Source of the DNA: Takakia lepidozioides
Lineage: Eukaryota; Plantae; Bryophyta
Direction of reading: 5' to 3'
DNA: 64,000 nucleotides
Assembly (NCBI GenBank): GCA_030704615.1
Contig: CM060734.1
Span: 54,002,001 to 54,066,000 of the forward strand
Numbering within the stretch: position 1 is the stretch's first letter; each line of letters opens with the position of its first letter. This document shows positions 25,497-57,213 of the stretch, piece by piece. The notes beneath the pieces are model-generated. The model saw only the letters and a list, made by a program, of their open reading frames with translations. It searched no databases and was not told the origin of the DNA. A program made the position numbers and the translations under genes.

Positions 25497-27229
25497 AAGG
25501 ATGTTTTGTTGGAAAGATGCGATTGTCTTGCTTCGATCATGATGGTAGCTACTCAGATCATCACCATTTCCTGAGAGTATTGACCATGATGCACTGTTGA
25601 GTGCATTTCTGTACTGTTGAGTCATAGAGGATTGGTCATAGACACCTGTTCGGTCATAGGCCAACTTACACTAGTGTTTTGGATGGAAGGCTTGTGATGA
25701 ATTGAGATTCCCCAGAGTTCTCGACCTTGATCTTATAAGGTCAATTGGGGGGCTCTACTCTTCCCACCAGGAGAACTAAACAGGGCCACTCACCCTGTCA
25801 GTCCAATGCGACCGCATCGTGCCGCTGCAGCCGAAGAGAAAACGACATGGGCGGCCACACCCGACTTTCACTTAACACATGCTTCATCCCCTAAGTGACT
25901 CCCTGTTCATTTGTGGATGATTGTGCGAGATACCATCCCGTGTAGGCCACGCGTCCAAGCACCTGCACTTTGCCATCCCTCACTGAGCTACACCATGTTC
26001 AACGGTGTTAATCTGATCAACGCTTCCCTAGATTTCACTCCAGGCAGTCCTCACTACTCTGTATTCTATCAATCACTGCCCACAGTTACGATTCACAGTT
26101 CGCCGTTGCTGTCGAGGTGCTTGCGCTCATTACACCGTTGTGGTTGATTTCAATCATGTTCTAAACGAGTCTGGCATCCACTCTCAAGGCCGTCATTTCT
26201 GAGCTATTTCTACATATTCAGTACTCTGAGATATGTCTGAACCTTGCTCACAATTTACAGCGTTCACGCTATGCAATGACTCTGCAAAGACGGGTGACAC
26301 ATCACGTGCAAATCTACTGTTTCCACTTCTCTCATTGCTTCATAACATGTGGTGTTTGTACAACCCATGATCAGATTCACGCGGTGGCTAAGTGACCAAT
26401 CCCGTTACTAATTCTCTCACACAGTCCACGGTATTTGCTGCTGTACATCTCCATGTTGCATTCTCTTGGTCTACAATCTGTTTTCGTGTAAAACAGTCTC
26501 GGCGACGCCACCTTTGTTGGTCTCTAACTACCGTTCTTTCTCATCATCCAGAGTGCTTAAGTCTCCGCTCACTCTTTTAGCGCATAAGGGCCCAGCGGGG
26601 CCCTCCAAAGTTATCAAGAGAAAGTGGACTTGTCTCAATCGGCTACCACTTCAATCTGGAGAGCCAGGGCAGCCATAAGTAAGTTCAAACTGCCTAAACT
26701 GCTTATATTGTCTGATGAGCACTTTCAACTTTTCATCGCATGTACCACATCTTCATCGACTTCTTTAAAATGTATTTAATAGTCGTCAAATATCTATTGT
26801 TTTAATTATGGGTTGTCTATAGATATAGAGTCGGTGCAGATTATATCTCGGGTCGCATACTGTTTTTGCATAGTCGGCACCGACCATTTCTCAGTGCACC
26901 CACGTTAATATTTATAGTCGGCACCGACTATTAGAATGTTGTGTCTTGTTACTTAGTCATTGAAGTGCCGGAACGTTGAATTTGATCGGTACCGATTAGG
27001 TCGGATTTGTTCGGATCATTGTCGGTGCCGACTTTGTGTGATTTCGACGTTATAGTCTGTAACGACTACCACAACTCATTTTAGAATTATGCAGCTACAA
27101 AGTCCATTAGTTTCTTCAAACATAACCTTTACAGAATGTTGTGTTTTCTCTTACATAATACCAATCTGACGTGGTTCCTCCTCAAATTTGTAATTGTAGA
27201 CTGTGATTTTCTATGCATTTTGCCTATTG

Positions 27230-36220: not shown

Positions 36221-36943
36221 TGTCGCGGCCCTTTGCCTTGAGGGCAGGGGGTCGGGACACATCAGGGGCTGCCCCTGTGGTGGGGGCAGCGGCAACGATA
36301 GGTATGGGGGGCTGAGGCACCCTTGAGTGCCCAAGGCACTCAGGGAAGCGGAGGCGCTCACTAGGTGGAGCCCCGCACACCGGGTTGCGGTGGGGGTGGC
36401 TCCACAAGGGGTGGTGGTAGCTTAGTGGGACTTAGTGGGGGTGGCATAGGACTCACCATGGGGGCGGAGACCTCGTGGTGGGAGTCGTGGGGAGTCTTGG
36501 GACTCATCACGGTCCATAGGGGCCGTGGTGAGCGGGCCAAGACTCACCGCGACTCACACCGGGAGTCGAGGGTTTTCGTGGTGGTTCGCCATAAAATGGC
36601 ATGGCTGGTTGTGGAACCCCCGCGGACAGCTACAGAAGTATATATAGGGAGTAGTAACCCCGAGAACGGTGCAAGCCCGTTGGTGACCAAAAACTAGTGA
36701 GTAAGCGAGGGAGCCGGAAAGCGACCAAAGAGTGGGGAGCTGTTCCGGACTGCCATCTACCAAAGGGAATTCTCCTAGTCCCAAATAGGTGGAGGGTTTA
36801 GAGGGAAGCGGAAGGGGACCGTTATGTCCCGGTGAGCAGCCGAAACTCCAAGTTGGCCGGCGGCCAGGTTGGGAGTCAGGCGCGCGCATCAAAGCGAGTA
36901 ACTATGACTTGAAGGGGAGTTTACCGAAGTGAGGTGTGCGACA
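36221..36943 (+). repeat. 5' LTR of chromovirus
   Basis: Near-identical to 42466-43211; TG...CA ends; TATATA at ~36640. Confidence 0.95.
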
Positions 36944-36945
36944 TT

Positions 36946-36957
36946 TGGTATCAGAGC
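36946..36957 (+). promoter_or_regulatory. Primer-binding site for tRNA-iMet
   Basis: TGGTATCAGAGC, 2 nt after the LTR. Confidence 0.95.
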
Positions 36958-36998
36958 TTAGAGTTCAGTACGCGATCGTCCTTGGGATTGGCCTCATC

Positions 36999-39900
36999 AT
37001 GGGGTCGGGCAAGCCGAAGCGAAAGCGGAACGGCCCAAAAGATGATGATCCCGGTGAGCCCGATGGGGGCGACGTGTCACCGAGGCGGCCGTTTGAGGAA
37101 GCGATGAATGTTTCCGAAAACGAGGCCGCTCAGGAACGGGAGGAATCCGAGGAGTCGGAGCCCGAGGAATCCTTGAGAGCTCCGACAAACCAAGAGATGC
37201 CTCCCATGCCGGCAGCCTTTTGGGAAGGGTTGTTGGCGCAGTTTGGCGGGACGTTGAAAGACGTGTTGAAGGCGGCTAATGCCACTTCCACTAAGGCAAA
37301 GTTTAAGGTGAAGCCTAAGGAACCCGGCACCTTCGAGGGCGTTCGAAACCGGAAGGCACTCAACACCTGGCTCCTGGAGCTAGAGCAGTACTTCCGGGCG
37401 GCCAAGTTGAGTGACGAGGATCGGGTGGAAGTGGCTCCCACCTATTTGAGGGGCTATGCTCAACAATGGTGGCAGAAACGCCTTCACGACCGAGGCCCAA
37501 GCCCGGAAACCTTGAATTGGAGTGGGTTCAAGGAATTGATGAAGAGACAGTTTGTGCCCCTCAACGCATCCTGGCTTGCCCGGGACAAGATGAGGAATTT
37601 GAAGCAAACAGACGACATTCGGGGGTATGTCCAGGCTTTCAATGTGCTGTTGCTCGAAGTCGCGGACATGGCAGAACCAGAAATGGTCTTCAACTTTGTG
37701 GCAGGACTGGCCCCATGGGCTAGGCGGAAGTTGGAGGAGAAGCCACCCAAGACTTTGAACGAGGCAATTGAGAGAGCTGAATGTTTCTCGGATGTCCCTA
37801 GGGGTGAGAGACAAGGCCGTACGGAGCTGAACCACAAGAAGACCCGGCGGGAAGGTGACTCCTCCCGACCGGAAAAGAAGTGGGATAGGCCACGCGGCGA
37901 AAATGGCACGTGGAAATCGAAGGGAGGTCCTTCACACGTCAAGGCGGCACCCGGTGCTTCGAAAGGAAAAGCGGGTGGAGCGGCTTATGGCGGACAGAAG
38001 GCGACCTTTGATGGAGTGTGTTTCAATTGCGGGGAGCCCGGGCACATGGCCAAGAAGTGCACGAAACCCCGGCAATTGAACATGACTCGGGCGACCACGG
38101 AGCTGTCAGAAGATACCATCAGTCGCTTGGTGGAAGCGGTAGTCGCCAGGACTTGCAAGGTAGGCAACTATTCTTGTGAGTTGTATCAGGAAACTGGCGC
38201 CCTGCGAAAAGGGAGTCAATTATTGTTCGTGGATGGGATAATATCCGGAACTAACGTGTCGTTGTTGGTGGACACAGGAGCGTCGCACTCCTTCATGACG
38301 CCGGTGGCGGCGCGAAAGTTGGGACTCCCGACAAGTGACGTGGGGGCCTCTATTGAGGTGCGTTCTGCCAAAGGAGAACCTCAGTTGGCGACAAGGTTGG
38401 CGTTTGATGTTCCTCTTCAACTGGGGAGTTGGGAGGGACGTGAGAACTTCACTATCTGCGAGATCGATGGAGTGGATCTCATTTTAGGGATGACCTTTTT
38501 GAGCAAATCCGGAGCGGTCATAGATGGCCGCAAGAGAGTAGTCACGCTCCCATGTGGGAATGGTGACGAGGTTTTACGAGTGTCGGAAACGCCCAAATCC
38601 GTGGGAGGGCGAATAAACCTTCTGTCAGCAAAGGAGTGGGCCGTGGAGGAGGCACACGAGTCCCAGTTTTTGCTTTACATTAGAGAAGTGAAAGGAGAAG
38701 GCGATGGGGAGCCGAGCCCAGATTGGATCAAGGGGATTTTGGAGAAATACCAGGATGTGATGCCGGAGGACTTACCAAGCGGCTTGCCACCGCGAAGAGG
38801 AGTTGACCACAAGATTGAGGTGATACCGGGAGCGGGACCGCCTGCCAAGGCGCCCTACCGGTTGAGCCACAGAGAGTTGGTCGAGCTGAAGACGCAGCTC
38901 AAGGATCTAATGTCAAAGGGGTACATCCGGCCGAGTAAGTCACCTTACGGAGCCCCGGTGCTATTTGCAGACAAGAAGGATGGGACGCTGCGGATGTGTG
39001 TCGATTACAGGGCTCTGAATAAGGTGACTATCAAAAACCGGTACCCTTTGCCAAGGATCGACGACCTCTTCGATCGGTTGGCAGGAGCGAAGTATTTCAG
39101 CCGGATCGACTTGCGCTCCGGCTATCACCAAATTCGGGTGGCAGAAGGAGATGAGGAGAAGACCGCGTGCAGGACAAGGTATGGTTCATATGAGTTTTTG
39201 GTGATGCCTTTTGGGCTCACCAATGCACCAGCGACATTTAGCACGCTGATGAACAGCCTTTTCCAAGAGTGGTTGGATGACTTCGTGATCGTGTACATCG
39301 ACGACATCTTGGTGTACTCGAAAACAAAGGAGGAGCACCTGGAGCATCTCAAAAGGGTGTTCCAGAAATTGCGAGAAGGGAAGCTGTATGCCAAAGCTTC
39401 AAAGTGCGAATTCGGGGTCACAAAAGTGGAGTTCTTGGGGCATGTGATTACACAGGATGGGATCAAAATGGATGACAGAAAAGTGAGGGCGATCTTGGAC
39501 TGGGAGCCTCCGACTTCGGTCCCGGGAGTGCGATCCTTCCTAGGACTCGCCTCCTATTACCGGAAGTATGTGAGAAATTTCGCCAAGATCGCGGGGGCCG
39601 CTGTCGGACCTTCTGTGTAAATCCAAAGTCTGGGTATGGAACACATTTTGTGGCCAAGCTTTTGCTGAATTGAAGCAGCGGATGACGGAAGCTCCAGTCT
39701 TGAAAATCCCGGAGTTCGATCGTCCGTTTGAGATTCATACAGATGCATCGGACTTCGCAATTGGGGGTGTACTTATGCAAGATGGACGTCCAGTGGCTTA
39801 CGAAAGTAAGAAACTGAATGAAGTGGAGCGATGGTGGCCGACGCACGAAAAAGAGATGAAGGCGGTGGTGCATTGCCTTGAACTCTGGCGCCACTATGTT

Positions 39901-41560
39901 GGTTCCAACCCAGTGAAGGTGTTCACGGACAATGTCACGGTGAAGTATTTTGCCACGCAGCCCAAGTTGTCCCCAAAACAACTTAGGTGGCAAGATACTT
40001 TGGCAGTGTTCGACGTGGATATCCAGTACAAACCGGGACGGGACAATGTGGTGGCCGATGCTTTAAGTAGAAAGCAGCAGCTCTTGTTGGTGTACAAGGG
40101 CGAGACGGCGCTCCAAAGGAAGATCCGGAAGGCTTGCCGGAAGGATGAGCTGGCAAAGTGCGTGATGCAGGACTTGAGAATGGGGGTTAAATCGCAGTTC
40201 CACTTGCAAAACGGACTGCTCCGGTATAAGCAAAAACGTCTCTATGTGCCAAAGGGAGGGATCAGGGATAGTCTCTTGAGAGAATGCCATGATAGCCCGC
40301 TTGCGGGCCACGGTGGAGCCAAGCGCACTGCGGCACTCTTGAAGAAAGAGTATTTCTGGCCCAAACTGAGGGAGGAGGCAGAGGAGTATGTCAAGACATG
40401 CACCACATGCCAACAAAACCGGAGCGAGTACAAAAAGCAAGCGGGGCTGTTACAACCCTTGCCGATTCCAGAGGGGACTTGGGAAAGCGTCTCGATGGAT
40501 TTCATGACTGCTATGCCGCTGTCAAAAGGATTCGATGCAATCATGGTGGTGGTAGATAGGTTCAGTAAAATGGCCCATTTCATCCCCACCAAGGAGACGG
40601 CAACGGCGCAGGAGACAGGGCGACTTTACTTCGCCCACGTCTTAAAGCATCATGGAGTCCCGAAGGATATTGTCTCGGACCGCGATCCAAAGTTTACGAG
40701 TAAATTCTGGAGAGCACTTTGGAAGAAGATGGGGACGAGGCTGAAGATGAGCACCGCCTTCCGACCTACGACGGACGGCCAAACGGAAAGAGTGAATTCC
40801 GTAGTGAAGCAATTCTTGCGGAATTACGTGTCGGCAGACCAATCAGACTGGATGGAACACTTAGACGCGGCAGAGTTCTGTTATAATAACACAGAACACT
40901 CCGCGACGGGAGTTTCCCCTTTTGTGTTGGTCTATGGAAAAGCACCTCTGGTGCCGACAAGTTGGGCCGCCCAGGACGTTGAGGAACCGGCAGTAGCGGT
41001 GGTACTGGAAGAACGCGAGCGTTTGTTGAAGCTCGCAAAGTACAACATTGCCAAAGCTAGGAAACGGTATGAAAGGCAGGCGAATCGGAAGCGGAGGGAA
41101 GTGAAGTTTGAGGCAGGCACAGAGGTCTGGTTGAACATCAAGAATTTCCGACTACCTCCGGAAGTGAGTCCGAAGTTCGTACCTTCGTATGCGGGTCCCT
41201 TTCGCATTCGGAGGTTATGAATGAGGATGTGTATGAATTGGAGCTGCCGGCAAACAGCAAGGTGCACCCAGTATTCCATGTCTCCCTTTTGAAGCCTTAC
41301 TTCAAAGATGAAGCACGTCCGAATCGGCAGCAAGTGTTGGCCCGTCACCTATGCTGTTGGATCATGAAAATGAACCTGAGTACGAGGTGGAGGCAATACT
41401 TAAGTCAAGGACGTTCAAGAACCGAGAAACGGAGTATCTCGTCAAATGGAAGGGCTATCATCTTGTGGAGGCATCTTGGGTGCGTGCCTCAGAAATGGGA
41501 AACGCATCCGAGGCAGTTGCAGCGTTCGAAGGGCGACCTCAAAAGCGGAAGAAACGTTGA
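36999..41560 (+). CDS. Gag-Pol polyprotein (Gag, CCHC knuckle, protease, RT, RNase H, integrase, chromodomain), with about three frameshifts
   Basis: [31 protein letters not shown]...[28 protein letters not shown]...YLVKWKGY. Frameshifts near 39595, 41215 and 41345. Confidence 0.93.
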
Positions 41561-42465
41561 TGGGGACATCAACCTTGGAGCGTGGGGGAGGAAATGCATA
41601 CTTAGCCCGGTTTAGCTAGCTCAGGAATCCGATTGCAAAAACTTGTATTGTACAAAAATTTGTTATAAAGGAAATGGGTCCAAATATTATGCGTCCTATT
41701 GTGTTTGGAATGGTGATGCATGGTGTGGTTGGCTAGTGTGTAGAATGCATGCTAGCTTACAAAAGTGGGAGAGGTAAATTGGGTTAATCGTGTGTTTGCG
41801 CAGTGCCGAAATCGGGTGACTCCCATCCAAGGGGCAAGGAAACTTGCGCCTTATTTGGGAGTTCACGTGCTAGTGCGCACCTGGCGCGTGCGCGTACTAT
41901 AACTGCGCTACCGAGGGGGTTGCCTTGTAGTGCGGGCTAACGCGGAAGCTACGTGCTTCCGTTCACGTACTATAATCGTGTAGCCTCGGGACGAAGTCGT
42001 AGTGCGGCTTCGGCGTGTTCCCGTACCTCAGGCCAGCATTCCAAGGCGGACCCAATTGTAGTGATTGGGGCGCACGGTTGGTTCAAGATTATCTTCATAG
42101 TCAAAGAGGGTTCCAGGTGAACCCTTGCTCAAGGTGATGCCAAAAGCGGCATCATGAGCGATCGCAAGCAATGTTGTTGCAGTAAGGCGATTCGATCCTC
42201 GGGGAGGATCGTTCCTTGGCCTTGAAGTAGGCCAAGAAGAGTGCACTGGGAGGAGCTGGAGAGGCTCCACCCTTGGCCGGGACTTGGAGGAAGTCGGCCG
42301 AACTAGCTAGTGGAGAGTAGAGTCAAGTGTGGGGTTTGGTTCTTTGCCATGGGACGCCATGGTGCGGAAACAAACTCCTTGATGTGGGACGCCACAGCTT
42401 GGATGTTCGTTTCTACAAAATGGACAAGTCGATGAGGACATCGACTCCCTGTTGGTAGGGGTGTG

Positions 42466-43211
42466 TGTCGCGGCCCTTTGCCTTGAGGGCAGGGGGTCGG
42501 GACACATCAGGGGCTGCCCCTGTGGTGGGGGCAGCGGCAACGATAGGTATGGGGGGCTGAGGCACCCTTGAGTGCCCAAGGCACTCAGGGAAGCGGAGGC
42601 GCTCACTAGGTGGAGCCCCGCACACCGGGTTGCGGTGGGGGTGGCTCCACAAGCGGTGGGGGTGGCTCCACAAGGGGTGGTGGTAGCTTAGTGGGACTTA
42701 GTGGGGGTGGCATAGGACTCACCATGGGGGCGGAGACCTCGTGGTGGGAGTCGTGGGGAGTCTTGGGACTCATCACGGTCCATAGGGGCCGTGGTGAGCG
42801 GGCCAAGACTCACCGCGACTCACCACCGGGAGTCGAGGGTTTTCGTGGTGGTTCGCCATAAAATGGCATGGCTGGTTGTGGAACCCCCGCGGACAGCTAC
42901 AGAAGTATATATAGGGAGTAGTAACCCCGAGAACGGTGCAAGCCCGTTGGTGACCAAAAACTAGTGAATAAGCGAGGGAGCCGGAAAGCGACCAAAGAGT
43001 GGGGAGCTGTTCCGGACTGCCATCTACCAAAGGGAATTCTCCTAGTCCCAAATAGGTGGAGGGTTTAGAGGGAAGCGGAAGGGGACCGTTATGTCCCGGT
43101 GAGCAGCCGAAACTCCAAGTTGGCCCGGCGGCCAGGTTGGGAGTCAGGCGCGCGCATCAAAGCGAGTAACTATGACTTGAAGGGGAGTTTACCGAAGTGA
43201 GGTGTGCGACA
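42466..43211 (+). repeat. 3' LTR of chromovirus (PPT-like ggtaggggtgtg immediately upstream)
   Basis: Copy of the 5' LTR plus a 21-bp tandem duplication (gcggtgggggtggctccacaa). Confidence 0.95.
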
Positions 43212-44317: not shown

Positions 44318-44403
44318 TCTTAATCATGCTAACCCCCTACTGTAGACTTATATTTAAGGTATTGTTTATCCCCCTATGTATGTATAATGTTGTACATTGG
44401 GGG

Positions 44404-44579
44404 TGTCGTGCGCATACATATCGCTACACAACTACATCGCTGTCCAAAACCACACAACACATGTGCACACCACACACTAGTATACCACTAGTCTGCCACT
44501 AGTCCAACCACTAGGCTACAACTAGTCAGTCACTAGGCTGCCACTACGCTGCCCACTATGGCAGTCACTAGTCCACACA
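44404..44579 (-). repeat. LTR segment A (U3-proximal part), terminal copy
   Basis: Copy of 44913-45100 lacking one 12-bp CCACTAGT-type unit. Confidence 0.9.
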
Positions 44580-44583
44580 ATAG

Positions 44584-45100
44584 TGATAAAGAAGAAGAAT
44601 ACAAGCACAAGCTCATGCGAGCTCACAAAGCTGAAGCATAAACTCATGCATATATAACCTCATCACTCAAATACAAGTCAAGCCAAGTGCACCCCACGCC
44701 ATGGGGAATCCACACTACGGCGCCATAGCTAGGCGCGGTGAGGCTCAACTCGAGAAAGATGAGCCTCCCGCGCTTGCCGTGAAGATAACCACTCCAGGGC
44801 CTAAATCTGCCTTGACCCCTGGATTGACACTTGGGCCAATCCCAAATGTCAATATGTAAAAGCTAGCTATTTCCTAGCTAGTTTCACACTAGTGGTAAAA
44901 TAACTTGACAGCTGTCGTGCGCATACATATCGCTACACAACTACATCGCTGTCCAAAACCACACAACACATGTGCACACCACACACTAGTATACCACTAG
45001 TCTACCACTAGTCCAGCCACTAGTCCAACCACTAGGCTACAACTAGTCAGTCACTAGGCTGCCACTACGCTGCCCACTATGGCAGTCACTAGTCCACACA
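44584..45100 (-). repeat. Complete LTR (segment A 45100-44913, GC, segment B 44910-44584)
   Basis: On minus it starts TGTGTGG 2 nt after the purine tract AGGGGGGCG and ends TTTATCA. Segment B appears identical to 56431-56757. Confidence 0.85.
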
Positions 45101-45102
45101 AT

Positions 45103-45112
45103 CGCCCCCCTA
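45103..45112 (-). promoter_or_regulatory. Polypurine tract (PPT)
   Basis: TAGGGGGGCG, then AT, then the LTR TG. Confidence 0.7.
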
Positions 45113-45360
45113 GCTGGTGCTTAGGTCCCTCTAAGTCCAGGTAGCCACAAGATGTGATAGTGACCATAGCCTCACTAAGTCCTCCACCACTATCCCTACT
45201 ACACTCAAACTCGATAGATCAAGAGGCCGGGTGCAAGAGTTGCCCCATCGTTAGTCGCCGTCTTGCAACCTGTGAACTTGAGCTTGGGATCTCATGTATT
45301 GACTCCTATGAGCTTGGCCTCCCATGTCTTGTTAGCTGCCTCCAGTCATGTCCACTGCCA

Positions 45361-48300
45361 CTATCCCAAGCAGTGTGGACACAACCAATCTCCGTCAGGA
45401 ACCTTCTCAAGAGGTGGTGTCAAGCATCCCATATGCCAACCCCTTGAGCATCGATCACACACCAGCATGGTGGCTGCCCCTTTGGCAGACCCACAGAGCA
45501 TGCACCTCAAACCTGCAGGTACCACTGCCAAGTTTGGGTCAACTCTGCCATCGACATTGGGAAGGTGACATGGCGCACAATTACGCACATGGTCCTTCCA
45601 AGTCATGCCATCCCGACCCTCCAAGATCAGGACCCCTGAGGGCAACACCTCTCGAACCCTCAGAATAACACGCCCTGCAGTAACATCCAGAGTCGTAGGA
45701 GCAGTCTGCTGCAAATAAACATAGTCACCAGGGCTAAACCTCCGAACCCCAGGACGATATCCTCCACCACGTATAGTGGCATACCTCAACGTATCACGGT
45801 GCTGTGCAATGGCAAGGTTCTCAAAAGCCATGGGCATGACTTTCTTGAACAACTCTGCACGCTGATCACATGCACGTACCCACACGTCCGGATCGTCAAG
45901 GTTAAGGACTTGAGCAGTGTCCCTACGAATGGCTGCAGGCAAATCCGGCTCTCGGCCAAAGAGAAGGAAATATGGTGAGAAGGAGGCAAGTGATGCTTGT
46001 TTGCTGAACCTGTAGCCCATGGCTAACCAAGGAACCTGAAGATCCCAATCTCCTAGGTGTCCCTTCTGCAAGCCATACTTGCGCAAACCCCTCTTCACCG
46101 TCTGAACAACTCTCTCTGCTAAGCCATCGGCCTCAGGATGATCCCGAGAAGTGGTGCGGTGGTCTATCAAGGCTTTATCACACAAAGCCTGAAACTCCCC
46201 CAAGAACTCTCTCCCTTGGTCCGTGAGTACCTCAGCTGGAGCACCAAATCGGCTAAGCACACGATCCAAGAATGCATACGCAGCCCCCTCACTAGCCTTG
46301 TCAGGCAATGGAACCAACTCAATCCACTTGGAGAAGTGCTCCACCATCACCAACACATATCTGTGGTGGCGCATAGTCAGTGGCAACGGTCCTGCGAAGT
46401 CAAGACTCCACCTGTAGCCCAATCCCATGATAGGTAAAGGATGCAACTGTGGTGTAGGGGCGTTGAATGAAGCACGCACCCTGTCACACACCATGCACCT
46501 AGCCACAAACTGTTGCACCTCTGTATGCATACCACGCCACCAATACTGCCCCTGCAGTAAACTGTGAGTGCGTCGCACTCCAAAATGCCCCAACTCCTCA
46601 TGGGCATGCCGCACTAACCGTGCACGCTGTGTGGGGTGAGGCACAATCCTCACCCGACCACCCTCCCACACTCGAAGTAGGTGTATCCCCTCCCACTTGA
46701 ACCTCTTGGCTCGTTGCAGGATCCGATCCCTCTCCCTGGCAGTCACAATGGCTGCCGTGTCTCCCGTGCGGAGGTAGTCCAACACAGCCGAATCCTCATG
46801 TATATCTCTGGCACCACCTAGCTCATCACTAGCCTCAGGGTCCTCAGACACTCCGTCTACAGTCATCCCTGTTGTAGGTCCAATCTGACCTCCCGATGCC
46901 AAGATACACAAAAATGCAGATGCGTGCCATCCCGGCACCATCTCCTCGTCCGTCTCACCATGCCACCGAGCTCCAGTGTCATCCTGCTGGCTCATGCATG
47001 GATTGCGACTCAATCCATCCGCATCCCGATTGACCAAACCCGGTCGATGCACAACCTGAAAGTCATACTCCTGGAGTATAAGTGCCCACCGTGCAAGCTT
47101 CCCTGTAAGCTTGTCTGACTCCATCAACCACTTGAGTGGCTGGTGATCCGTGACAAGGGTGAAAAGATTGCCGTATAGATAGCACCTGAAGTGTGCCACG
47201 GCCCACACTGCAGCTAAGCACTCTCCCTCATATGAGCTGTACTTAGCCTCTGCAGCGTTGTTCGAGCGGCTAGCGTAAGCCACTACGAACTCTCTTCCCT
47301 CATCATCCACCTGTGTGAGCACCGCTCCAAGCCCCAGCATGCTCCAATCCGTATGCAGCTGAAAGGGACGCCCCCTGATAGGTCGTCTCAAGATAGGCGC
47401 CGAGGTCAACCTCGCCTTGAGCTCTTGAAAAGCTCGTTCCTGCTCATCTTCCCACTGCCACTCCTGGTCCACCTTGGTCAGCTTGGTTAGAGCCTTTGCA
47501 ATGGTACTAAATCCCTTGACAAACCGTCTATAATAGTTTGCCAACCCCATGAAAGCTCGAACTCGGCTCACATCCGTGGGGCGTGGAATTTGTGCAATGG
47601 CCTCTACCTTAGTCTGCTGTACCCCCAATCCTCCAGGATATATCATGTGACCCAGATACTCAATCTGGTTGTGGAAAAACTTGCACTTCCCCGGATGCAA
47701 CTTCAATCCGTGCGCTCTCAAGCGCTCCAATACCACCTGAAGGTGTCTCTCATGCTCCTCCATCGTAACACTAAAGATGATGATGTCATCTATGTAGCAC
47801 CGAGCAAAGTCCACCCCTGCTAGAATCCTATCCATGACTCTCTGAAACTCTGCAGGAGCATTCTTAAGCCCAAATGGTAAGAACCGCCACTGATATAGGC
47901 AATCCTTGCCGTGCTCATTGATCCCCCAGAATGCCGTCTTCTGCTTGTCCGCCTCCTTGATTGGCAACTGGTGATATCCGGATCGTAAATCCAAAGTGCT
48001 AAAGGCCTTAGCATGCCCGATGGCATCAAAGATCTCCTCTGGTGTTGGCATGGCATACTTATCGGACTTGGTCTGACGATTTACAGGCCGGTAATCACCG
48101 CACATACGTCTCTCCGTCCAATTGCCATAGACATCCTTCTTGGCTGGCATCACTGTGGCTGAAGCATACTCTCCACCAGAGAGCTCCACCAAACCTGCCT
48201 CCCAGAGATCTTGAGTCCTCATCTGAATCAAAGACCTCTCCATGTCACTGTATCTATAGGGTCTCCGAAAGATTGGCGTGTCAGTGGCCAACTCAATACG

Positions 48301-48495
48301 GATCTCTTGACCCTTCAGTGCTCCCAAGTCCTTCAAACTGAAGGCAAAGCAATTCCTGTAAGCCCTCAGGAACCGCCGTATACGTCGTCTCTCTCCTCCG
48401 GTGACAATGGGTCCAATGTCAGGCTCCCAATTGTCCTCCGTAACTACAACCTTAAGTCCAGTGGGCTTAGAGGTAGAGGACGCGTCCCGTGGTTG
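45361..48495 (-). CDS. Pol: RT, RNase H, integrase and C-terminal PHD finger; in frame with the upstream ORF after a single TAG
   Basis: [53 protein letters not shown]: CMLC..CDRC..WHMGC..WLCPHC (45504-45370). Open from 48495. Confidence 0.95.
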   Translation of the reverse strand, partial: QPRDASSTSKPTGLKVVVTEDNWEPDIGPIVTGGERRRIRRFLRAYRNCFAFSLKDLGALKGQEIRIELATDTPIFRRPYRYSDMERSLIQMRTQDLWEAGLVELSGGEYASATVMPAKKDVYGNWTERRMCGDYRPVNRQTKSDKYAMPTPEEIFDAIGHAKAFSTLDLRSGYHQLPIKEADKQKTAFWGINEHGKDCLYQWRFLPFGLKNAPAEFQRVMDRILAGVDFARCYIDDIIIFSVTMEEHERHLQVVLERLRAHGLKLHPGKCKFFHNQIEYLGHMIYPGGLGVQQTKVEAIAQIPRPTDVSRVRAFMGLANYYRRFVKGFSTIAKALTKLTKVDQEWQWEDEQERAFQELKARLTSAPILRRPIRGRPFQLHTDWSMLGLGAVLTQVDDEGREFVVAYASRSNNAAEAKYSSYEGECLAAVWAVAHFRCYLYGNLFTLVTDHQPLKWLMESDKLTGKLARWALILQEYDFQVVHRPGLVNRDADGLSRNPCMSQQDDTGARWHGETDEEMVPGWHASAFLCILASGGQIGPTTGMTVDGVSEDPEASDELGGARDIHEDSAVLDYLRTGDTAAIVTARERDRILQRAKRFKWEGIHLLRVWEGGRVRIVPHPTQRARLVRHAHEELGHFGVRRTHSLLQGQYWWRGMHTEVQQFVARCMVCDRVRASFNAPTPQLHPLPIMGLGYRWSLDFAGPLPLTMRHHRYVLVMVEHFSKWIELVPLPDKASEGAAYAFLDRVLSRFGAPAEVLTDQGREFLGEFQALCDKALIDHRTTSRDHPEADGLAERVVQTVKRGLRKYGLQKGHLGDWDLQVPWLAMGYRFSKQASLASFSPYFLLFGREPDLPAAIRRDTAQVLNLDDPDVWVRACDQRAELFKKVMPMAFENLAIAQHRDTLRYATIRGGGYRPGVRRFSPGDYVYLQQTAPTTLDVTAGRVILRVREVLPSGVLILEGRDGMTWKDHVRNCAPCHLPNVDGRVDPNLAVVPAGLRCMLCGSAKGAATMLVCDRCSRGWHMGCLTPPLEKVPDGDWLCPHCLG

Positions 48496-51400
48496 CTATG
48501 CTGCAACCTCTTGAGCAGTACTCCCTACCTGCTCAGTCAATGACAAGGCCTCATCCTGCCCCATCATCTCATCCTTGAGGACCTCCTCAACTCGAGAAGA
48601 ATCCCCAACCTCATCCATCACAGCCGCCTTGGCTGCCAACTCCCTCTGAACCTCGAGCACCTCCCACGTGTGCCATGGATGCATGCACCCCGTGGTCCTC
48701 ATATGCTCGCCCCCACTCACTGCCTGTACCGTCTCGGTAGGCAGAGAGACCATTGAGGGAAGTGTATTCCGCACTCTGCGTTGCTCAGCTAGAGCCAAGC
48801 TGATAATCCAGGTCAAGCAATTGAGATCCATTGCTTGCCCCAACACTTGACGACGTGATGCCTCAGAAAGAGACGACACCGCCGTGGTACCAGTGGTAAA
48901 ACCCATTGCCCGCTCACGCTCGTCAGCATTAGGCTCCACTAACTGCTGCAACTGAGCATCCCACAGGAGGCCAGGTCCACTATCCCGGAAAGCATGCGAT
49001 CCTGGGAAGCTGAGCAGTGTAGGTAATGCTGCTCGTGGTTGACCCACCTTGTTGACCACTGCCAAAGGCGAACGGTCATCGTGTCTCACACGTTGAGACT
49101 GCCTCCCTGTGTCCAGAATGTTATCCACTGTGAGATGTGCTGGCCGCTGCACCCCATCAAATGCACGCTTGAGCAGTGCGGGTGGCATCATGTTAGTCCA
49201 CCATAGCCGTGGACGATGAGCCCGTGACCCCACTGTAGCTGCATCTAGCAACACTGCTGACCCAAGCCACGACCGGACTTGATGCACACTGGCCATCACC
49301 CTGGCCCGAGAATCGCCCATCAGTGGCACATTCTCCAAGATGTATGCTGGAGATACAGCTTGATGAAGCTGCAAGTGGCGCAAAACCCGCACCATCTCCC
49401 AAAACAGACCCGACCTCGAGTCTCGCAATCCATTGCCATGCCCGGCTGATGAATGCCCTTGGCAGGGCCAACCTGCCACTACCAGATCAATGGAGCCAAC
49501 CCGCTCCAAATCCTGCGCCCCCAGCAACGAAATGTCTGCTGGCAAGGCCTGCTGATATCCACGAATTGCAGACACCGACAACAACTCAGGGTACCGCTGC
49601 ACCAACTGAGCAACATGGCGAAGTGAAACGCGTCGTGCAGTCTCATCCCTCTCCACATACAGGTAACGCCGAACTCGTACACCTGCCTGTAACACAGCAG
49701 CCAATCCGGTGCTGATCCCGCCAAACAAGTCCAGAAGACAAATGCCTTCATCCGGAGACTGCCACACAATAGGTGTGGTGTCCAATGGAGACAATTGAGG
49801 TGGTCCTGGTGCAATCCCCACACTCTCCTCCTCTCCTGACGGTACAAAAGCCTCCACCCAGGCTTGTTGCACCCGTCGATCAGCATCCCGCTGCAAATCC
49901 TTGCTCGTGCCCCACAATGGAGTCTGAGCAACCATGGTAGGCAACTCCGCCATACCATACATGTCATCCTGCTCTCCCGGAGGTGGTACATCCTCTGAAT
50001 GAGCATTGCCCTCAAGCAACTCTCTAGGCCAACTCACTGCCGCTGTGAATGCTGCTAGTGTCGGCATCTTGCCTCGCTGGGCAACCGCAACTCCTCCTAT
50101 GAACGTCACAGGGAGCTGCACACGCCGGCCCTCCCCTGACTGCCATGCAGGCCTATAGGAAGCTGACTCCTCCCAAAAATCCAGGGTGAAGCCCATGGGG
50201 TACAACACTGCCCCACCAACCAGGACATCGTATGAGACTGCGTCTGTCACAATGGCCTTGGCTCGCATCACTGAGCCATCTGTAGGGTGATCCGGCCGTA
50301 GTCTGATAGCCAACTCATGCCGTGTCATGCCCCGAGCCTGCTCCGATCCTCCCAGAGACGTCTGTATCTGGAAAGGACAAGGCTCCATATCCGCCTCCGT
50401 GAGGCCCAAGCCTGCAATAGCAGCTCTGCCCAGCATCAGTGGCTGAGCTCCCGAGTCCAACAAGACTCGCAGTGGCCGGTACCTCTTGCCTGCCGGTCCA
50501 CTCAAACAGAAAATGCCATCCTGGTTGTCTAACATGACAACTCCAGGTGTCACCATGGCGCGCTCAATGGCTGGCCTAGCTGGCAGCTCCATCAACCTGG
50601 CAGCTGCAGCTTGCCATGGCGCCGCCGTGGCAGTCTTGACCCTCAAATCCGAGGATCCCTCCGGCACTACACCTCCCACTATCTCCGCAGAAGATGAAGT
50701 AACCTCCCCACTCTCACAGAGTGTAGCTGCCAGCCTGAACACCTCAGCTGGTCTTATCCCCGGCGTCGCAATCATGGTAGCCGAGAACAATGGAGCCTGG
50801 CACACAGATGTGGCCGCTCCTAGCAGCACACTAGCTGCCGTAGCCTTGGCAACACTAGGTAGTGGTGCTACCCGTGTAGCTCTCCCCAATGGCATAGTAA
50901 CCTCCGCCTCGGTAACAGTCGGGCGAGAACTAGGTGCCATGGATGGCGTCGACACTGTCTCCGCCAATGTGAATGACTGAGGAAGCCTAGCCTGACGGCT
51001 TGCCTCCCCACGCTGTGGATCCAACTCCACCTCTGCACCTCGTGGCTCAGGAACTCGTGCTGCTCCTCGAGTCACGGCTGCAGCAGACTCCACCTGCACT
51101 AGTGGTAGTGCTGCTCCACACATGAATCCCATGCCTCCCATATCTCCTCCCTCAGGAGCAGGAGGTGGACCATCCGGCCTTAGAGCCGGTACCACCTGAG
51201 CTGTAGCCATGGCAGCGAGCCTCTGCTCTAGCTGCTGAAGCCGGTTGGCCATGCCTTGGTCAACACCCTGACCTCCGCGTCCTTGGCCACGTTGAGCTTG
51301 CCCTTGGCCTGCACCTCGTGGCTGGCCACCTCGTCCTCTCTGGGCTGCTCCACCTCGCCCCCGGCCACCATTGTTCCCTTGGAACTGGCCTGGGCGCAAC

Positions 51401-52668
51401 TCAGGATGCAAACCATAACACTGAGCCTCTCCATGCCCGTGTTTGCCACAATGCCCACACTGCAACTGTGCAGGCTGTGCATGTGCCGGCCCTTTGCCTC
51501 CCTCTGGGACAATCCTTCTTGACATGGGGTCCTCCACATGTCCAGCACACCACATCCGCCCGTTGTTGGCCAGCAAATGAAGGGAGAGACCCCTGCATCT
51601 GAGGTCCTCTCTGCCCTTCCCTGAGCTTCACCTGAGCCCCCTTGTTGCCTTGAGCACGTTGAGGTAGTGGTTGGCTAGGAGCACCACTACCCCGTGGTGT
51701 CTCCTTAGCAAATCCCACCATGACCACTCGTTCCTCCACCATGTTGAGCTCTATCCGCTCTGCCAGCAAAAACACATTTGCTAAGGTGGGTTGGGCCGCT
51801 TGTAGGAGAGTTGCATCCCGCACCCTTCTCCTCAGCTCCTTGTCCAATATCCCATACCAGAATTGGACTGCCTGAGCTTCCGTAACCCCTTGGGTTACAT
51901 TTATCAAGCGCCTCATGCGAGTGAAAGCCTCCCTCAAGCTCTCGGTCGGCTTCCGTTGGAACTCTTGCAAGCTCCGCAACTTCTCTGTCCTCACCCCTTG
52001 GTAGTTCCCTCTCAACTCTTCGAAGAACTCCACAACAGGGTTGAAGGCAGGCACGGGTGCTAGTGCTGGTGCGGTAGTGGCTTGGGTGGACGTCGTAGCT
52101 ACTGTACCACCAGTCCCACTGCTGCTTGCTGAAGCTGCCGGTGCAGCGGCAGGTGTAGCCACTGCCCTCGTGGCTCTAGTGCCCCTAGTGATGGAGACAT
52201 AGTCGGGTGACCAGTACATCCTCCACTCCTCGATCTCAACCTCATGCCCCCGCCTGAACTCATGGTAATCATCCATAGGCGGCCCCTCAAGGTGCTGAAA
52301 CAGCCCTTCCATGCCATGAACGGCGTAAATAGTTGTGGATTGCGCATTTGCTGCAAATCACACCAACTATCAAACTCTTGGATAAAATCATCCAACTCAA
52401 TGGTGCCCACCGCCCCAGAGTACCTTCGTGGCCCCTTGGTAGCTCCATACATCTCCTCCATTGTGTCCCACAACAATGGCAAAGAAACAACTTGCACCGC
52501 CGGTATGAGCCCTCCTGATTCACAATCCGAATCAGAACCTTCCGTGGAAGACACAGGAGGTGAAGGTGGCCTAAACCGCACACCTCGTCTCGTGTACCCA
52601 CTAGTATCGCTAGTGCTCGAACCGGCACTGTCCCCAGCAACTAGTGGCACCTCCGTGTTGACACTCAA
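48496..52668 (-). CDS. Gag (two CCHC knuckles), aspartic protease and DNA (cytosine-5) methyltransferase; two compensating homopolymer indels
   Basis: CWTCGGPHVKKDC, CGHCGKHGHGEAQC, LLDSGA; DNMT motifs LDLFGG, YVERD, GWPCQ, ENV, HRPRLWW, ERERAMGF, RRQVLGQAM. First in-frame ATG at 52461; indels at ~52305 and ~51507. Confidence 0.9.
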
Positions 52669-53393
52669 CCGGTCATGAACATGTCCCTAACCCCCTCTTC
52701 ACAAGGTAACCGGGTAGAGAACCTGTTGCGGCTTATGGTTTGGAATACTAAGTTCCTAACATAGCCTACACCTGTACCTGCATCCACCGCAAGCACTCCT
52801 ATGGTTGGCTGGTCATCACCTCCAACCTCACCACAGGAGAAACAATGATGGTCTGGCTGGTCATCACCCCAGCCTCACCATCGACAGCATGCTCTAGGAC
52901 TGGCCGGTGATCAAATCCGGACCAATCACCTATAAAAACAAGCGCCCACACAAAACTAGCATGGCGCACAGTCAAGCATGCAGGTATGGAGGGGATCCAA
53001 ACACAAGAAATCAGATCGACAACTCCCCCACACCAAAAACAACTCCACGGTGTTGCTCCTGCAAGGACACCCCAGCCCAAACCCGGACTGACTCTTGCCT
53101 CCACCTACGGAAAGGTCTTGGCCTAATGAGAGGGTGGAAACTACGAGGAAGAGAAGCTAAAGCAATGCCTAACCCCAGCATGCTCTCATCCCAACACTCT
53201 GCCTCTCCTCTCTACCCTCACTTGCATGACCATGGGAATATCATGAAGATACTCCTCAAACCGCCCTCCACGAGCTTCAAAATTGGCCTTCCAGACCACA
53301 TGCCAGTCCTTAGGCAGTACACCAGTGCCTCCATGAGTCAGCACAGGTCAACACGGTCCACCACAGACCAGCACAGGCCCACACAGCTCACTG

Positions 53394-54900
53394 GTCACAG
53401 CCGTCACAGTCCCACAGGCCACTGGGCACAGCCTGTCGCAGCCCCTCACAGCCTGTCACAGCCTCAAAGGCCTCAGGCACGGCGTGTCACAGCCCCTCAC
53501 AGCCCGTCACAGCCCCAAGGCCATGGGCACGGCCTGTCACAGCCCCTCACAGCCCGTCACAGCCCCAAAGGCCTCAGGCACGGCCTGTCACAGCCCGTCA
53601 CAGCCCCAAAGGCCTCAGGCATGGCCTGTCACAGCCCCTCACAGCCTCAAAGGCCTCAGGCACGGCCTGTCACAGCCCCTCACAGCCCGTCACAGCCCCA
53701 AAGGCCATGGGCACGGCCTGTCACAGCCCCTCACAGCCCGTCACAGCCTCACAGGCACAGGGCACAGCCGTCAGAGCCTGTCACAGCCTGTCACAGCTTG
53801 CCACAGCCCGTCACAGCCCGTCACAGCCTCAAAGGCCTCAGGCACGGCCTGTCACAGCCCCTCACAGCCCGTCACAGCCTCAAAGGCCTCAGGCACGGCC
53901 TGTCACAGCCCCTCACAGCCCCTCACAGCCTCAAAGGCCTCAGGAACGGCCTGTCACAGCCCCTCACAGCCCGTCACAGCCCCAAAGGCCATGGGCACGG
54001 CCTGTCACAGCCCCTCACAGCCGTCACAGCCCCAAAGGCCTCAGGCACGGCCTGTCACAGCCCGTCACAGCCCCACAGGCCTCAGGGCACAGCCTGTCAC
54101 AGCCCCGCACAGCCCGTCACAGCCCCAAAGGCCACTGGGCACAGCCTGTCACAGCCTGACACAGCCCGTCACAGCCCCACAGGGCACAGGGCACAGCCCA
54201 TCACAGCCTGTCACAGCCCATCACAGCCCATCACAGCCTGTCACAGCCCGTCACAGCCCACAGGCCAGAGGGCACAGCCTGTCACAGCCCATCACAGCCC
54301 ATCACAGCTCCACAGGGCACAGGGCACAGCCTGTCACAGCCCATCACAGCCTGTCACAGCTTGCCACAGCCTGTCACAGCCCGTCACAGCCCCACAGGCC
54401 AGAGGGCACAGCCTGTCACAGCCCATCACAGCCCATCACAGCTCCACAGGGCACAGGGCACAGCCTGTCACAGCCCATCACAGCCCATCACAGCCTGTCA
54501 CAGCTTGCCACAGCCCATCACAGCCCGTCACAGCCCCACAGGCCACTGGGCACAGCCCGTCACAGCCCGTCACAGCCCCACAGGGCACAGGGCACAGCCT
54601 GTCACAGCCCCTCACAGCCCGTCACAGCCCCAAAGGCCTCAGGCACGGCCTGTCACACCCCTCACAGCCCGTCACAGCCATCAAAGGCCTCAGGCACGGC
54701 CTGTCACAGCCCCTCCACAGCCCCTCACAGCCTCAAAGGCCTCAGGCACGCCTGTCACAGCCCCTCACAGCTCGCCACAGCCTGACACAGCCCGTCACAG
54801 CCCCACAGGGCACAGGGCACAGCCTGTCACAGCTCGCCACAGCCTGTCACAGCCCCTCATAGCCCATCACAGCTTGCCACAGCCTGTCACAGCCCCACAC
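53394..54900. repeat. ~1.5-kb minisatellite (10-bp core GTCACAGCC[C/T] with AAAGGCCTCAGGCAC and AGGGCAC spacers) in the element's 5' leader
   Basis: Obvious tandem periodicity. Confidence 0.97.
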
Positions 54901-55389
54901 ATGGCCGCTCTGGCAGTTTAGCCATTTCTCCAAGGGGTTTAGCCACGCCAAGCTAGGATTTGTGTCTCTTGGACTCTAGGCTTCTTTCCACCGAGCTATG
55001 GTGGCTGTGAGGAAATCAGCAAGGTATCCTTGCTCTTTCGGCTCCCACACACCACCATAGTAGCCCTAAGCCATGAGGTGGTTGCCACAAACCAAGCCTT
55101 CTTTCTCACTTAGCCTCCCCAAACACGCCACTAAACTCAATGGCAAACAACCAAGCCCTGCTGGTTCCCAGCCCTTGTGAGCACTCATTCAAGCACTCTC
55201 ATTGGCCATAACATCTGTCTTAGAGCCTATTCCAGCCCTCTACACCTGTTGCTTCAAGAGTTGCGCTCCCTTCAAGCTTGAAGTTGAAACCCCAACTCAC
55301 ATAGGCCCTACAAGTGCTTTTCTTTCACTCCAAGTGGAAACCAGCCCTAGACCTTCCGTTCTAGCTCTCTAAGGCTTGAAAACAAGAGC

Positions 55390-55760
55390 CTCAATGGGCT
55401 GAAGGCATGCTCCACACATGCCCCACTCTCACCATAAGAGAATCAGCTCCTTTGCTTCATTTCTTGCACCCACAAACCTGAAAAATACAAGCTTCAGCAG
55501 GCTGAAAGCATGCTCTACATGCCCTACAGGGAAACCAGCCCCTTCCTTCCTTCCTTGCACTCCCACACCTGAAAGTGCAAGCCTTCACCAGGCTGATAGC
55601 ATGCTCCACACATGCATTGCCCTCACATAAGGGAAGTCAGCCCTTCCCTCTTCCTTGCTTGCCCTCCAAGCTTGAAGATGGAAGCTTCAATGAGCTGAAT
55701 ACATGCTCCACACATGCAACCTCTTCACACAAGAGATATCAGCCCCCTATCTTGGCTCCT
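55390..55760. repeat. Four imperfect ~100-bp repeats in the 5' leader
   Basis: gctga...catgctc.acacatgc recurs at ~55397, ~55501, ~55591 and ~55693. Confidence 0.6.
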
Positions 55761-56414
55761 TGGCTCCTTGATGCTCTCTAAGACAAGACTAAGCACTCCA
55801 TAGCCTTTGCCAAGCTCCTGAAACCCTAAGGCTTACATTTCCAGCCACAAGACACTTCTCTTGTGGTGCAAGAGCTCTTCTTCCAAGCTCTGTAACCCTA
55901 GGTGCACATTCCATGGCCTTGCCGCACCTCTTAGCTCCTGTTCCAGCCCTGCTCTGCCATGACAAGAGCCCTCTCAATGCTGAAGCTCGAGATTGAAACC
56001 CAATCTCACCATACTCCACAAAGTGCACTGATTTGCCCCAAGCCAAATCAGCCCTTTCGCTTGGTCTTGCAATCCTTCACACAGTGACAGCTCGCATTCC
56101 CAAGTCCAGTTCTCAGCTTTGCCACCAAAGCCACTATAACCTGCTCTTGACTGGTCCTCTTCCCAATCGTGCTTGCTCATGCATGTACACAATCTGAAAC
56201 CATCAAGGTGCTCTGGAATTACCTACAGTATGGTGCTTTCATCTCTGAAGCTGAAGATCGAATGCCAAGGTTACCACCTCGTAACCCACATCGCCTCCGC
56301 TTCTAACAACCAAGAGTTCCACGGTGCTCCTTGCATAACAACTTGGTTTCTCTCATTCTCAAGCAAAAACCACAAGTGCTACAACTAACTCGTATCTAGC
56401 ACTCATAGATACGA

Positions 56415-56430
56415 GCTCATCTTTCTCGAG
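56415..56430 (-). promoter_or_regulatory. Non-tRNA primer-binding site complementary to the element's own LTR (putative self-priming)
   Basis: CTCGAGAAAGATGAGC directly after the LTR end; 56415-56431 is a perfect 17-nt inverted repeat of 56595-56611. Confidence 0.7.
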
Positions 56431-56757
56431 TGATAAAGAAGAAGAATACAAGCACAAGCTCATGCGAGCTCACAAAGCTGAAGCATAAACTCATGCATAT
56501 ATAACCTCATCACTCAAATACAAGTCAAGCCAAGTGCACCCCACGCCATGGGGAATCCACACTACGGCGCCATAGCTAGGCGCGGTGAGGCTCAACTCGA
56601 GAAAGATGAGCCTCCCGCGCTTGCCGTGAAGATAACCACTCCAGGGCCTAAATCTGCCTTGACCCCTGGATTGACACTTGGGCCAATCCCAAATGTCAAT
56701 ATGTAAAAGCTAGCTATTTCCTAGCTAGTTTCACACTAGTGGTAAAATAACTTGACA
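56431..56757 (-). repeat. LTR segment B, 5'-terminal copy
   Basis: 327 bp matching 44584-44910. Confidence 0.93.
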
Positions 56758-56778
56758 GGGGGGTTAAAAATACCCCAT

Positions 56779-56828: not shown

Positions 56829-57213
56829 TGTGGGATGCTTAGTTGCAGCAGTTAGTGGAGCTTAATGCTAACGAGCATGAGCGGGCGATGGGTTTTTCCA
56901 CTGGGACCACGGGGGTGTCGTCTCTCTCTGAAGCATCACGTCGTCAGATGTTGGGGCAAGCAATGGATCTCAATTGCTTGACCTGGATTATCAGCTTGGC
57001 TATGGTTGAGCAACGCAGAGTGCGGAATACACTTCCTTCGATTGTCTCTCTGCCTATCGAGACAGTATAGGCAGTGAGTGAGGACGAGCATGTGAGGACC
57101 ACGGGGTGCAGACATCTATGGCACATGTGGGACGTGCTCGAGGTTCATAAGGAGTTGGCAGCCAAGGCGGCGGTGATGGATGAGGTTGGGGAGTCTTCTT
57201 GGATTGAGGAGTG
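56829..57213 (+). pseudogene. Diverged fragment of the same retrotransposon DNMT C-terminus
   Basis: QQLVELNANEHERAMGFSTGTT...RRQMLGQAMDLNCLTWII aligns to ~48965-48580; contains stops. Confidence 0.9.

Follow-up and report, generated by a model that had tools for sequence, protein, structure and literature searches.

A Ty3/gypsy element of Takakia lepidozioides with a predicted DNMT3-like methyltransferase upstream of a conserved and probably leaky stop

Known elements and the Takakia locus

A Ty3/gypsy retrotransposon with a DNA methyltransferase (DNMT) domain, KnitGypsy-Dnmt3, was described from Klebsormidium nitens (de Mendoza et al., 2018); it has the DNMT in its Pol open reading frame (ORF), DIRS-like repeats and a Ka/Ks below 0.2 (PMC5890265). 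Here we describe a related element, lying at 44404..56757 in a 64,000-nt window of the Takakia lepidozioides genome (contig CM060734.1); all coordinates are positions within this window, and the element is called the window copy when compared with relatives. Like KnitGypsy-Dnmt3, it is a Gypsy element with an intronless, non-permuted Dnmt3-like domain between protease and reverse transcriptase (RT), signs of purifying selection and DIRS-like split repeats. Unlike KnitGypsy-Dnmt3, it has a land-plant host and a high copy number, and its DNMT is cut off from the RT by a conserved stop codon and hexamer, whereas the K. nitens protein (P0064) and its clade run the DNMT into the RT in one ORF. The accessible part of the 2018 paper mentions neither a PHD finger nor a programmed stop and gives no mechanism for the repeats (PMC5890265).

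Other retrotransposon-borne C5 methyltransferases are those of SymbioDIRS-Dnmt3, SymbioLINE-Dnmt and the EpiLTRs (PMC5890265; bioRxiv 10.64898/2026.05.21.726589). The first two belong to other element classes and hosts, with a tyrosine recombinase or as LINEs (PMC5890265), and the EpiLTR enzyme is DNMT4-related and paired with a DAM (bioRxiv 10.64898/2026.05.21.726589). The species table of de Mendoza et al. includes Selaginella and Physcomitrella and does not list Marchantia and Sphagnum (PMC5890265), according to a 2019 review, land plants such as tracheophytes lack DNMT-carrying elements (PMC6338049), and a 2025 paper and a 2026 preprint use the phrase 'streptophytes (Gypsy-DNMT3)', citing earlier work; each of these sources was available in part. 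Our literature search, which left out most subscription journals, found no paper on land-plant members, on a stop at this place or on insertion from circles, and figures or supplements of the 2025 and 2026 works may list bryophytes. The REXdb paper does not mention a methyltransferase, and PMC2864245 mentions neither PHD, Fogey, methyltransferase nor methylase. A resemblance to REM1 is possible. Within the known kind, the Takakia element stands out by its land-plant host, a DNMT that precedes a probably leaky stop, the PHD-bearing integrase and the permuted ends.

The methyltransferase domain and its relatives

An initial annotation had placed an intact C5 methyltransferase, with its motifs in linear order and free of stops, inside one retrotransposon polyprotein between protease and RT. 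All seven motifs were recovered in this order on the minus strand, with no stop in the domain or back to the protease: LDLFGG (49734-49717), YVERD (49659-49645), motif IV, ENV (49335-49327), RPR (49215-49207), ERERAMGF (48921-48898) and RRQVLGQAM (48855-48829). The C5 methyltransferase motifs I, IV (PC), VI (ENV), VIII (RxR), IX and X are thereby present in order, and a single uninterrupted frame (51627-48496, minus strand) covers them together with the protease motif LLDSG. Motif IV, GWPCQ, occupies 49473-49459; the previously assigned 49467-49459 is that of PCQ only. The single polyprotein did not stand, as a TAG at 48498-48496 closes the frame before the RT, 93 codons past the modelled domain.

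The Pfam family DNA_methylase (PF00145) matched the ORF with an E-value of 2e-12 (47.6 bits, cut-off 22), and the same search reported no BAH or chromo family for it, as the initial annotation had it. The best phmmer hit of the domain was DNMT3A (E 1.3e-11), followed by DRM2 (9e-5) and HhaI (4e-4). In an atlas search the top cluster was PF00145 from Streptophyta (0.96), level with phage clusters. A structural model built from an alignment of 28 sequences reached a pLDDT of 90.2 and a pTM of 0.91. Its listed Foldseek matches were all DNMT3A/B/C (best TM 0.72/0.84), and a wide structural search had DNMT3B (Z 28.4, rmsd 2.7, 278 aligned residues) and DNMT3A (Z 27.9) on top, with lower scores for M.MpeI (24.4), HhaI (22.0), DNMT2 (21.8/21.3), DNMT1 (19.2), ZMET2 (17.7) and MET1 (17.2). 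Both sequence and modelled fold place the domain nearest DNMT3 among the DNMT folds and, in line with the first description, it is not permuted like DRM. Of the solved structures, the animal DNMT3A/3B catalytic domain matches it best in sequence and in fold, at 22-25% identity; the domain described here differs in being borne by a mobile element, without PWWP or ADD domain. The model and the motifs indicate an intact DNMT3-like C5 methyltransferase domain in a land-plant Ty3/gypsy element.

Among 95 full-length homologous domains, the catalytic Cys is kept in 90, the motif VI Glu in all 95 and the motif VIII Args in 91 and 94, and all seven scored residues are intact in 69; the Pro before the catalytic Cys is replaced by Glu in 11. 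Selection was estimated from 16 sequence pairs, with the DNMT synonymous rate (dS) saturated in 10. For the six pairs of finite dS, which compare the window copy with one family of related copies (hereafter moss-type), the nonsynonymous rate (dN) was 0.20-0.24, dS 2.3-3.9 and dN/dS 0.055-0.10, and the RT gave similar ratios (0.046-0.10, three finite pairs). Neutral evolution, which had been named as a ground for doubting the domain, does not agree with these ratios; they indicate that the DNMT domain is under purifying selection. Host variants were synonymous in 11 of 18 cases in the DNMT, 3 of 15 in the linkers and 4 of 6 in the RT (39 scored from 40 listed of about 503, as selected by the tool, the remaining one falling outside the frame).

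Homologues 64-76% identical to the domain were found in records of Marchantia, Calypogeia, Riccia and Sphagnum, which confirms the presence in land plants that the initial annotation could not confirm. More distant ones came from metagenome contigs (about 50%), from K. nitens (P0064, 45%, E 4e-54), in agreement with the suggested kinship to charophyte elements, and, in part, from Monoraphidium. Three layouts occur: RT-RNase H-DNMT-integrase (including Monoraphidium), protease-DNMT-RT in one ORF (including Klebsormidium) and protease-DNMT-stop-RT. The positions of the domain in these layouts indicate that it has moved within the polyprotein. Metagenome loci L047-L052, L055 and L058 and protein homologues P0042, P0050, P0051, P0054, P0059 and P0071 have the DNMT after RNase H and ahead of the integrase, carry a PHD finger and lack the stop; one relative of this layout is from the chlorophyte Monoraphidium, and many have GWECQ in motif IV.

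The stop-bearing layout groups the land plants with the 50% families (tree support 0.92), and the Klebsormidium clade is not its direct sister in the RT tree. Within the group, branching order is near-identical in the RT and DNMT trees (L026, L031, window copy/L002, then Marchantia with moss-type); the order of the window copy and L002 differs between them, and the window element branches outside the Marchantia-Sphagnum group. The domain tree was rooted on distant C5 methyltransferases, and its sequences took in no verified cellular DNMT3. Two loci considered as host DNMT3 (L071/L070) were rejected as such and are decayed element-type copies. The family is abundant in the host, with 50,490 and 57,312 contigs aligning on 4.7 kb in two runs of one sample; run X1 may itself be where the window's DNA comes from. 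All 30 bins are covered in the X1, X2 and X5 DNA runs and no high-depth joint skips the domain, so that its absence from most family members, the other ground for doubt raised at first, was not observed. Three stretches matched viral contigs, none of them a relative.

The conserved stop between methyltransferase and reverse transcriptase

Past the TAG, a 1044-codon open frame for RT, RNase H, integrase and PHD finger continues in the same phase. The stop was surveyed in 77 metagenome loci, 31 of which contain the end of the DNMT followed by the RT; with the window copy this makes 32. In 30 of them the first stop upstream of the RT is a TAG or TAA in the RT frame followed by CAR-YY-N (CAACCC in 25, CAACCA in three and CAGTTA in two), against a background of 169 in 13,460 TAA/TAG stops. 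One exception reads TAG TAG CCA (L031), and the other (L041) has a decay stop nearer the RT and TAG CAACCC further upstream. The 32 rows represent 25 distinct insertions in five families, a sixth cluster (L010) being a moss-type copy that carries an insertion and was not counted separately; the stop context therefore has independent evidence from four of the five families, in two sequence forms. Over 48490-48500, counting also third codon positions, none of three DNA runs has a variant of at least 1%; the 160 bases aligned here hold 23 variant rows. An RNA run (X16), read at about 1 in 100, yielded 0 reads, which carries no weight either way. With the same context in 30 of 32 loci and no host variant, a private mutation of the window copy was rejected.

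Most protein homologues of at least 48% identity (110 of 155) end 50-190 residues past the domain; 36 end earlier, one later, and eight continue into the RT. The 1322-codon span of ORF1 in the window copy likewise resembles ORF1 proteins of 1248-1451 aa, without RT, in 29 relatives. Public models from Marchantia, Sphagnum and Riccia (P0008, P0009, P0013, P0043, P0161) join the DNMT to the RT across the conserved stop, and several transposon ORF1 proteins carry the name DNA (cytosine-5)-methyltransferase.

The CAR-YYA hexamer is an essential readthrough signal of tobacco mosaic virus (TMV), which gave 6-10% readthrough in transgenic Arabidopsis and was weaker with UAA (PMC2754532, accessible part). 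The window copy has this signal, TAG CAA CCA, and an open, conserved frame downstream. It resembles the TMV-type signal and the in-frame stops of MuLV, SIRE1 and Tca2 in that a single in-frame stop with CAR-YYA would ration the polymerase (PMC2754532, PMC2194720, both in part); it differs in that the stop follows protease and an accessory enzyme and not gag, nor does it precede env, and in that readthrough is here a prediction. From its conservation and context, the stop appears to be programmed and is likely read through. Gag, protease and DNMT would then be produced at about ten times the level of RT and integrase. Its placement makes the DNMT part of the Gag-protease ORF and not a Pol-level domain.

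Several points weigh against this. The full CARYYA is present in only 5 of 32 loci, and the moss-type CAACCC is off consensus in its final C and is followed by an in-frame ATG, so that re-initiation is possible there. In the part of the Tca2 study available, an in-frame gag-pol stop need not depend on local readthrough signals (PMC2194720). Furthermore, the window copy is itself unable to make an intact ORF1, its gag lying in three pieces of frame with breaks near 52303 and 51509; the contigs aligned to the element show much of the family differing at these two points, and the breaks therefore belong to the window copy or its assembly.

The stop could instead be a shared inactivating mutation, or the RT could be made from a separate or spliced RNA, with no readthrough at all. 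Most related copies are indeed decayed, and the eight joined models and the moss-type ATG directly after the hexamer would agree with it. We nevertheless regard this explanation as improbable. The position of the stop and its CARYY context are shared, in two sequence forms, by families with saturated synonymous sites, and the stop is retained in three copies whose DNMT and RT are both stop-free (window copy, L002, L026). In these same three families the first Met lies deep in the RT (codons 85, 48 and 117, respectively), so that re-initiation fits badly, though in two further loci it is codon 3 and 5. Of the eight joined models, five can be aligned across the region, and the places at which these land-plant models pass over the stop are not the same, a behaviour usual in gene prediction.

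Element ends, architecture and surroundings

The order Gag-protease-RT-RNase H-integrase with a DDE integrase, the TG...CA ends, the target duplication, the primer site and the polypurine tract identify the element as Ty3/gypsy (Table 1). It does not have two co-linear terminal long terminal repeats (LTRs) with RT-made ends; its layout is A-X-B-A-B and the polypurine tract starts B, not A. The two A repeats are identical and the two B repeats differ by one 12-bp unit, which marks the insertion as young. A nested insertion or an assembly artefact was rejected as the origin of this layout, since locus L032 has the same layout and a target duplication. Among the five elements with both ends, the 4-bp target duplication is perfect in four and has one mismatch in one.

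Table 1. Features of the Takakia element and their window coordinates
Feature	Position	Strand	Basis
Whole element, layout A1-X-B1-A2-B2, ends TG...CA	44404..56757	-	
Target-site duplication, 5' side; CCCC within a C run; 4 bp in relatives	56758..56761	-	
Target-site duplication, 3' side	44400..44403	-	
Repeat A1, 329 bp, identical to A2 (0 differences in 329)	56429..56757	-	
17-nt stretch in A, complementary to primer-binding site; putative RNA 5' end (self-priming, Tf1-like)	56595..56611	-	
Putative self-priming primer-binding site, end of A1	56415..56431	-	
Tandem array, 10-bp-based unit, within 4-kb leader	53372..54894		
ORF1: Gag, zinc knuckle, protease, DNMT; 1322 codons ATG to stop, two frame changes in window copy	48496..52461	-	
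Aspartic protease active site LLDSG	50449..50463	-	motif by eye, no Pfam match
Predicted C5 cytosine methyltransferase domain of DNMT3 type; PCQ with the catalytic Cys at 49467-49459	48778..49770	-	
TAG CAA CCA, conserved stop and CAR-YYA readthrough hexamer	48490..48498	-	
ORF2, an open frame of 1044 aa for RT, RNase H, integrase and PHD finger; codon 85 is the first Met	45361..48495	-	
PHD finger, integrase C-terminus	45370..45504	-	
Conserved cis box ending in polypurine tract, ~90% identity to moss-type relatives	45102..45146	-	
Repeat B1, 190 bp, starts at polypurine tract	44913..45102	-	
Palindromic B-A junction GACA-GC-TGTC, putative integrase attachment site	44907..44916	-	
Repeat A2	44582..44910	-	
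Repeat B2, 178 bp, B1 minus one 12-bp unit	44404..44581	-	

The sequence that follows A1 can pair with a site within A over 17 nt. This self-complementarity recurs with different sequence in L028 and L029/L032; in the other eight, decayed copies the pairing spans 7-12 nt, and 1 in 2000 shuffles reached 12. Priming by tRNA is not favoured, as there is no TGG start after A1 and the self-complement is found instead. A self-priming design is known in the Tf1/Tcn1 elements, where the primer site likewise pairs with a repeat of the element itself; they differ in having a chromodomain, which is here replaced by the PHD finger (PMC6317226, in part).

B starts where the polypurine box ends, so that RT would produce the ends B...A, whereas the inserted copies start with A and finish with B. 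The inner junction, CACGACA-NN-TGTCA, has GC as its central bases in the window copy, L005 and L032 and GT in L026. The A2-B2 join is variable, with two extra bases in the window copy, none in L032 and about 14 bases that start with primer-site sequence in L024/L025; it looks like the junction of an end-to-end complementary DNA (cDNA) circle, and its variation is what circles closed by end joining would show. In seven distinct informative insertions the element stops at B1 (A-X-B), which one-repeat circles or later recombination between B repeats would yield. The end structure as a whole fits insertion from circular cDNA, which supports the circular intermediate considered in the initial annotation. 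Two observations argue the other way: the mirror layout A-B-A-X-B, expected from two-repeat circles, was found in 0 of 10 distinct 5' ends, and recombination between B1 and B2 in a copy already inserted could likewise give A-X-B. The order A1...B1-A2-B2 is shared with the split direct repeats of PAT, Ngaro and VIPER; a DDE integrase, TG...CA ends and a 4-bp target duplication, and not a tyrosine recombinase, set the present element apart from them (PMC6681497, in part). L032 shares the complete A-X-B-A-B layout.

The leader contains a 1.5-kb array with the 10-bp unit CACAGCCTGT and higher orders of 51 and 92 bp. Seventy bp from the 5' end of the element, at 56829-57211 on the plus strand and hence in opposite orientation, lies a fragment of another family copy (DNMT end and linker) that is 91% identical and contains a stop. 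A second young Gypsy (36221-43123, plus strand) has near-identical ordinary LTRs and no DNMT; its gag-protease-RT changes phase near 39600, ahead of RNase H-integrase, and it served as CpG comparator and outgroup. An isolated RT fragment lies at 19870-20415 (minus strand). A pentatricopeptide repeat (PPR) gene of the PLS-E type with near-identical 303-bp triplets is present at 4686-6695 and, duplicated together with its flanks 18.4 kb away, at about 23000-25500 (plus strand), and an inverted part-copy of it lies at 1-746. Such a gene identifies the host as a land plant. Diphasiastrum is the best match of the repeat part (66% over 200 aa) and Ginkgo that of the C-terminal part (65-68%), with low tree support.

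Possible function of the methyltransferase

The layout observed is Gag-protease-DNMT, then TAG CAA CCA, then RT-RNase H-integrase-PHD, all in one frame and kept in five sequence families. Readthrough of the TMV type, at roughly 5-10%, would very probably yield about ten DNMT molecules per RT, and the DNMT would be packaged in the particle at Gag level. Self-primed reverse transcription would then produce a cDNA with B-GC-A repeats at both ends that is circularised and cut by the integrase at CA-GC-TG, two-repeat circles giving A-X-B-A-B and one-repeat circles A-X-B; judged from the ends of the insertions, we consider this course of events quite probable. With somewhat less confidence, we favour that the DNMT, once released by the protease, methylates the cDNA, so that the copy would reach the nucleus and the genome resembling methylated host DNA, while the PHD finger would read unmethylated H3K4 tails and steer insertion away from active promoters. 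A nuclear circle would be exposed for longer than linear cDNA, which may be a reason to mark it, although this is a guess. The purposes suggested in the initial annotation, self-silencing, mimicry or protection from autointegration, are candidates here.

The nearest solved relatives of the PHD finger are CHD4, PHD1 of KDM5A/B, ATXR5 and PHF21A, all of which presumably prefer unmethylated H3K4. By analogy, the PHD finger of the element may read the same mark. The methylation context would most likely be CG, as judged from DNMT3 and from SymbioDIRS-Dnmt3, which methylates CG de novo (PMC5890265, in part). The observed/expected CpG ratio of the element is 0.51, compared with 0.87 in the adjoining DNMT-less Gypsy of equal GC content, a weak indication.

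Overall, we lean towards a DNMT3-like enzyme made at Gag level that acts on newly formed cDNA of the element itself, methylating it prior to insertion and probably at CG. Some points weaken this. The enzymatic activity is a prediction from fold and residues; in yeast, the Klebsormidium domain on its own left the DNA unmethylated, which its authors regard as inconclusive (PMC5890265, in part); and the CpG depletion rests on one comparator and is on a level with the window background (0.56) and the PPR gene (0.46).

Alternatively, the DNMT may act at the attachment site, where methylating or binding CACGACA-GC-TGTCA would gate the integrase, protect the inner junction or prevent autointegration, in place of a mark on the cDNA as a whole. 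This sequence includes a CG and a symmetric CAG/CTG and is shared in conserved form by the window copy, the moss-type copies and L026, an autonomous copy requires that one of two like junctions stays uncut, and every element seen with this layout carries the DNMT. We consider this unlikely, since both junctions share their local sequence, a single site would not need a Gag-level enzyme, dead A-X-B copies are so common that protection would be poor, and L026 has GT in place of GC. Slightly less likely still is a role in trans, in which excess enzyme would enter the nucleus and methylate genomic copies or rival elements, controlling copy number. Synthesis at Gag level would far exceed the need of one cDNA, and a rate-limiting role of benefit to the host was raised by de Mendoza et al. 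(PMC5890265, in part); the domain, however, has no targeting reader of its own, the PHD finger being beyond the stop on the integrase, and the family has reached tens of thousands of contigs. That the domain is a nucleic-acid-binding or RNA-methylating component of the particle, with DNA methylation incidental, would suit its nucleocapsid-like place in the structural ORF and the inactivity on yeast DNA, yet is the least convincing of the three, given the conserved full catalytic set, a fold nearer to DNMT3 than to DNMT2 (Z 28 versus 21) and the Dnmt3 domains of SymbioDIRS that do methylate CG.

Methylation of the element's own cDNA by a Gag-level enzyme would also fit a broader, tentative picture that we hold to be possible and somewhat doubtful: a Gypsy lineage of ancient origin in green plants that still moves in land plants, perhaps in a vascular one too, in which a leaky stop of the viral type loads a DNMT3 into the particle and the methylated circle is inserted via the inner palindrome into H3K4-unmethylated chromatin, so that new copies would be methylated in advance, independently of RNA-directed DNA methylation. 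Gene predictors splice across the conserved stop, and counts of bryophyte 'DNMT' genes include transposon copies. Since 2018 it has been asked what transposon-borne DNMTs are for; the readthrough arrangement reduces the range of possible functions, as an enzyme placed ahead of a leaky stop implies that its dose matters and points to action in the particle. Marchantia and Sphagnum can be worked with in the laboratory and the host has a high copy number and young insertions, which makes the question testable.

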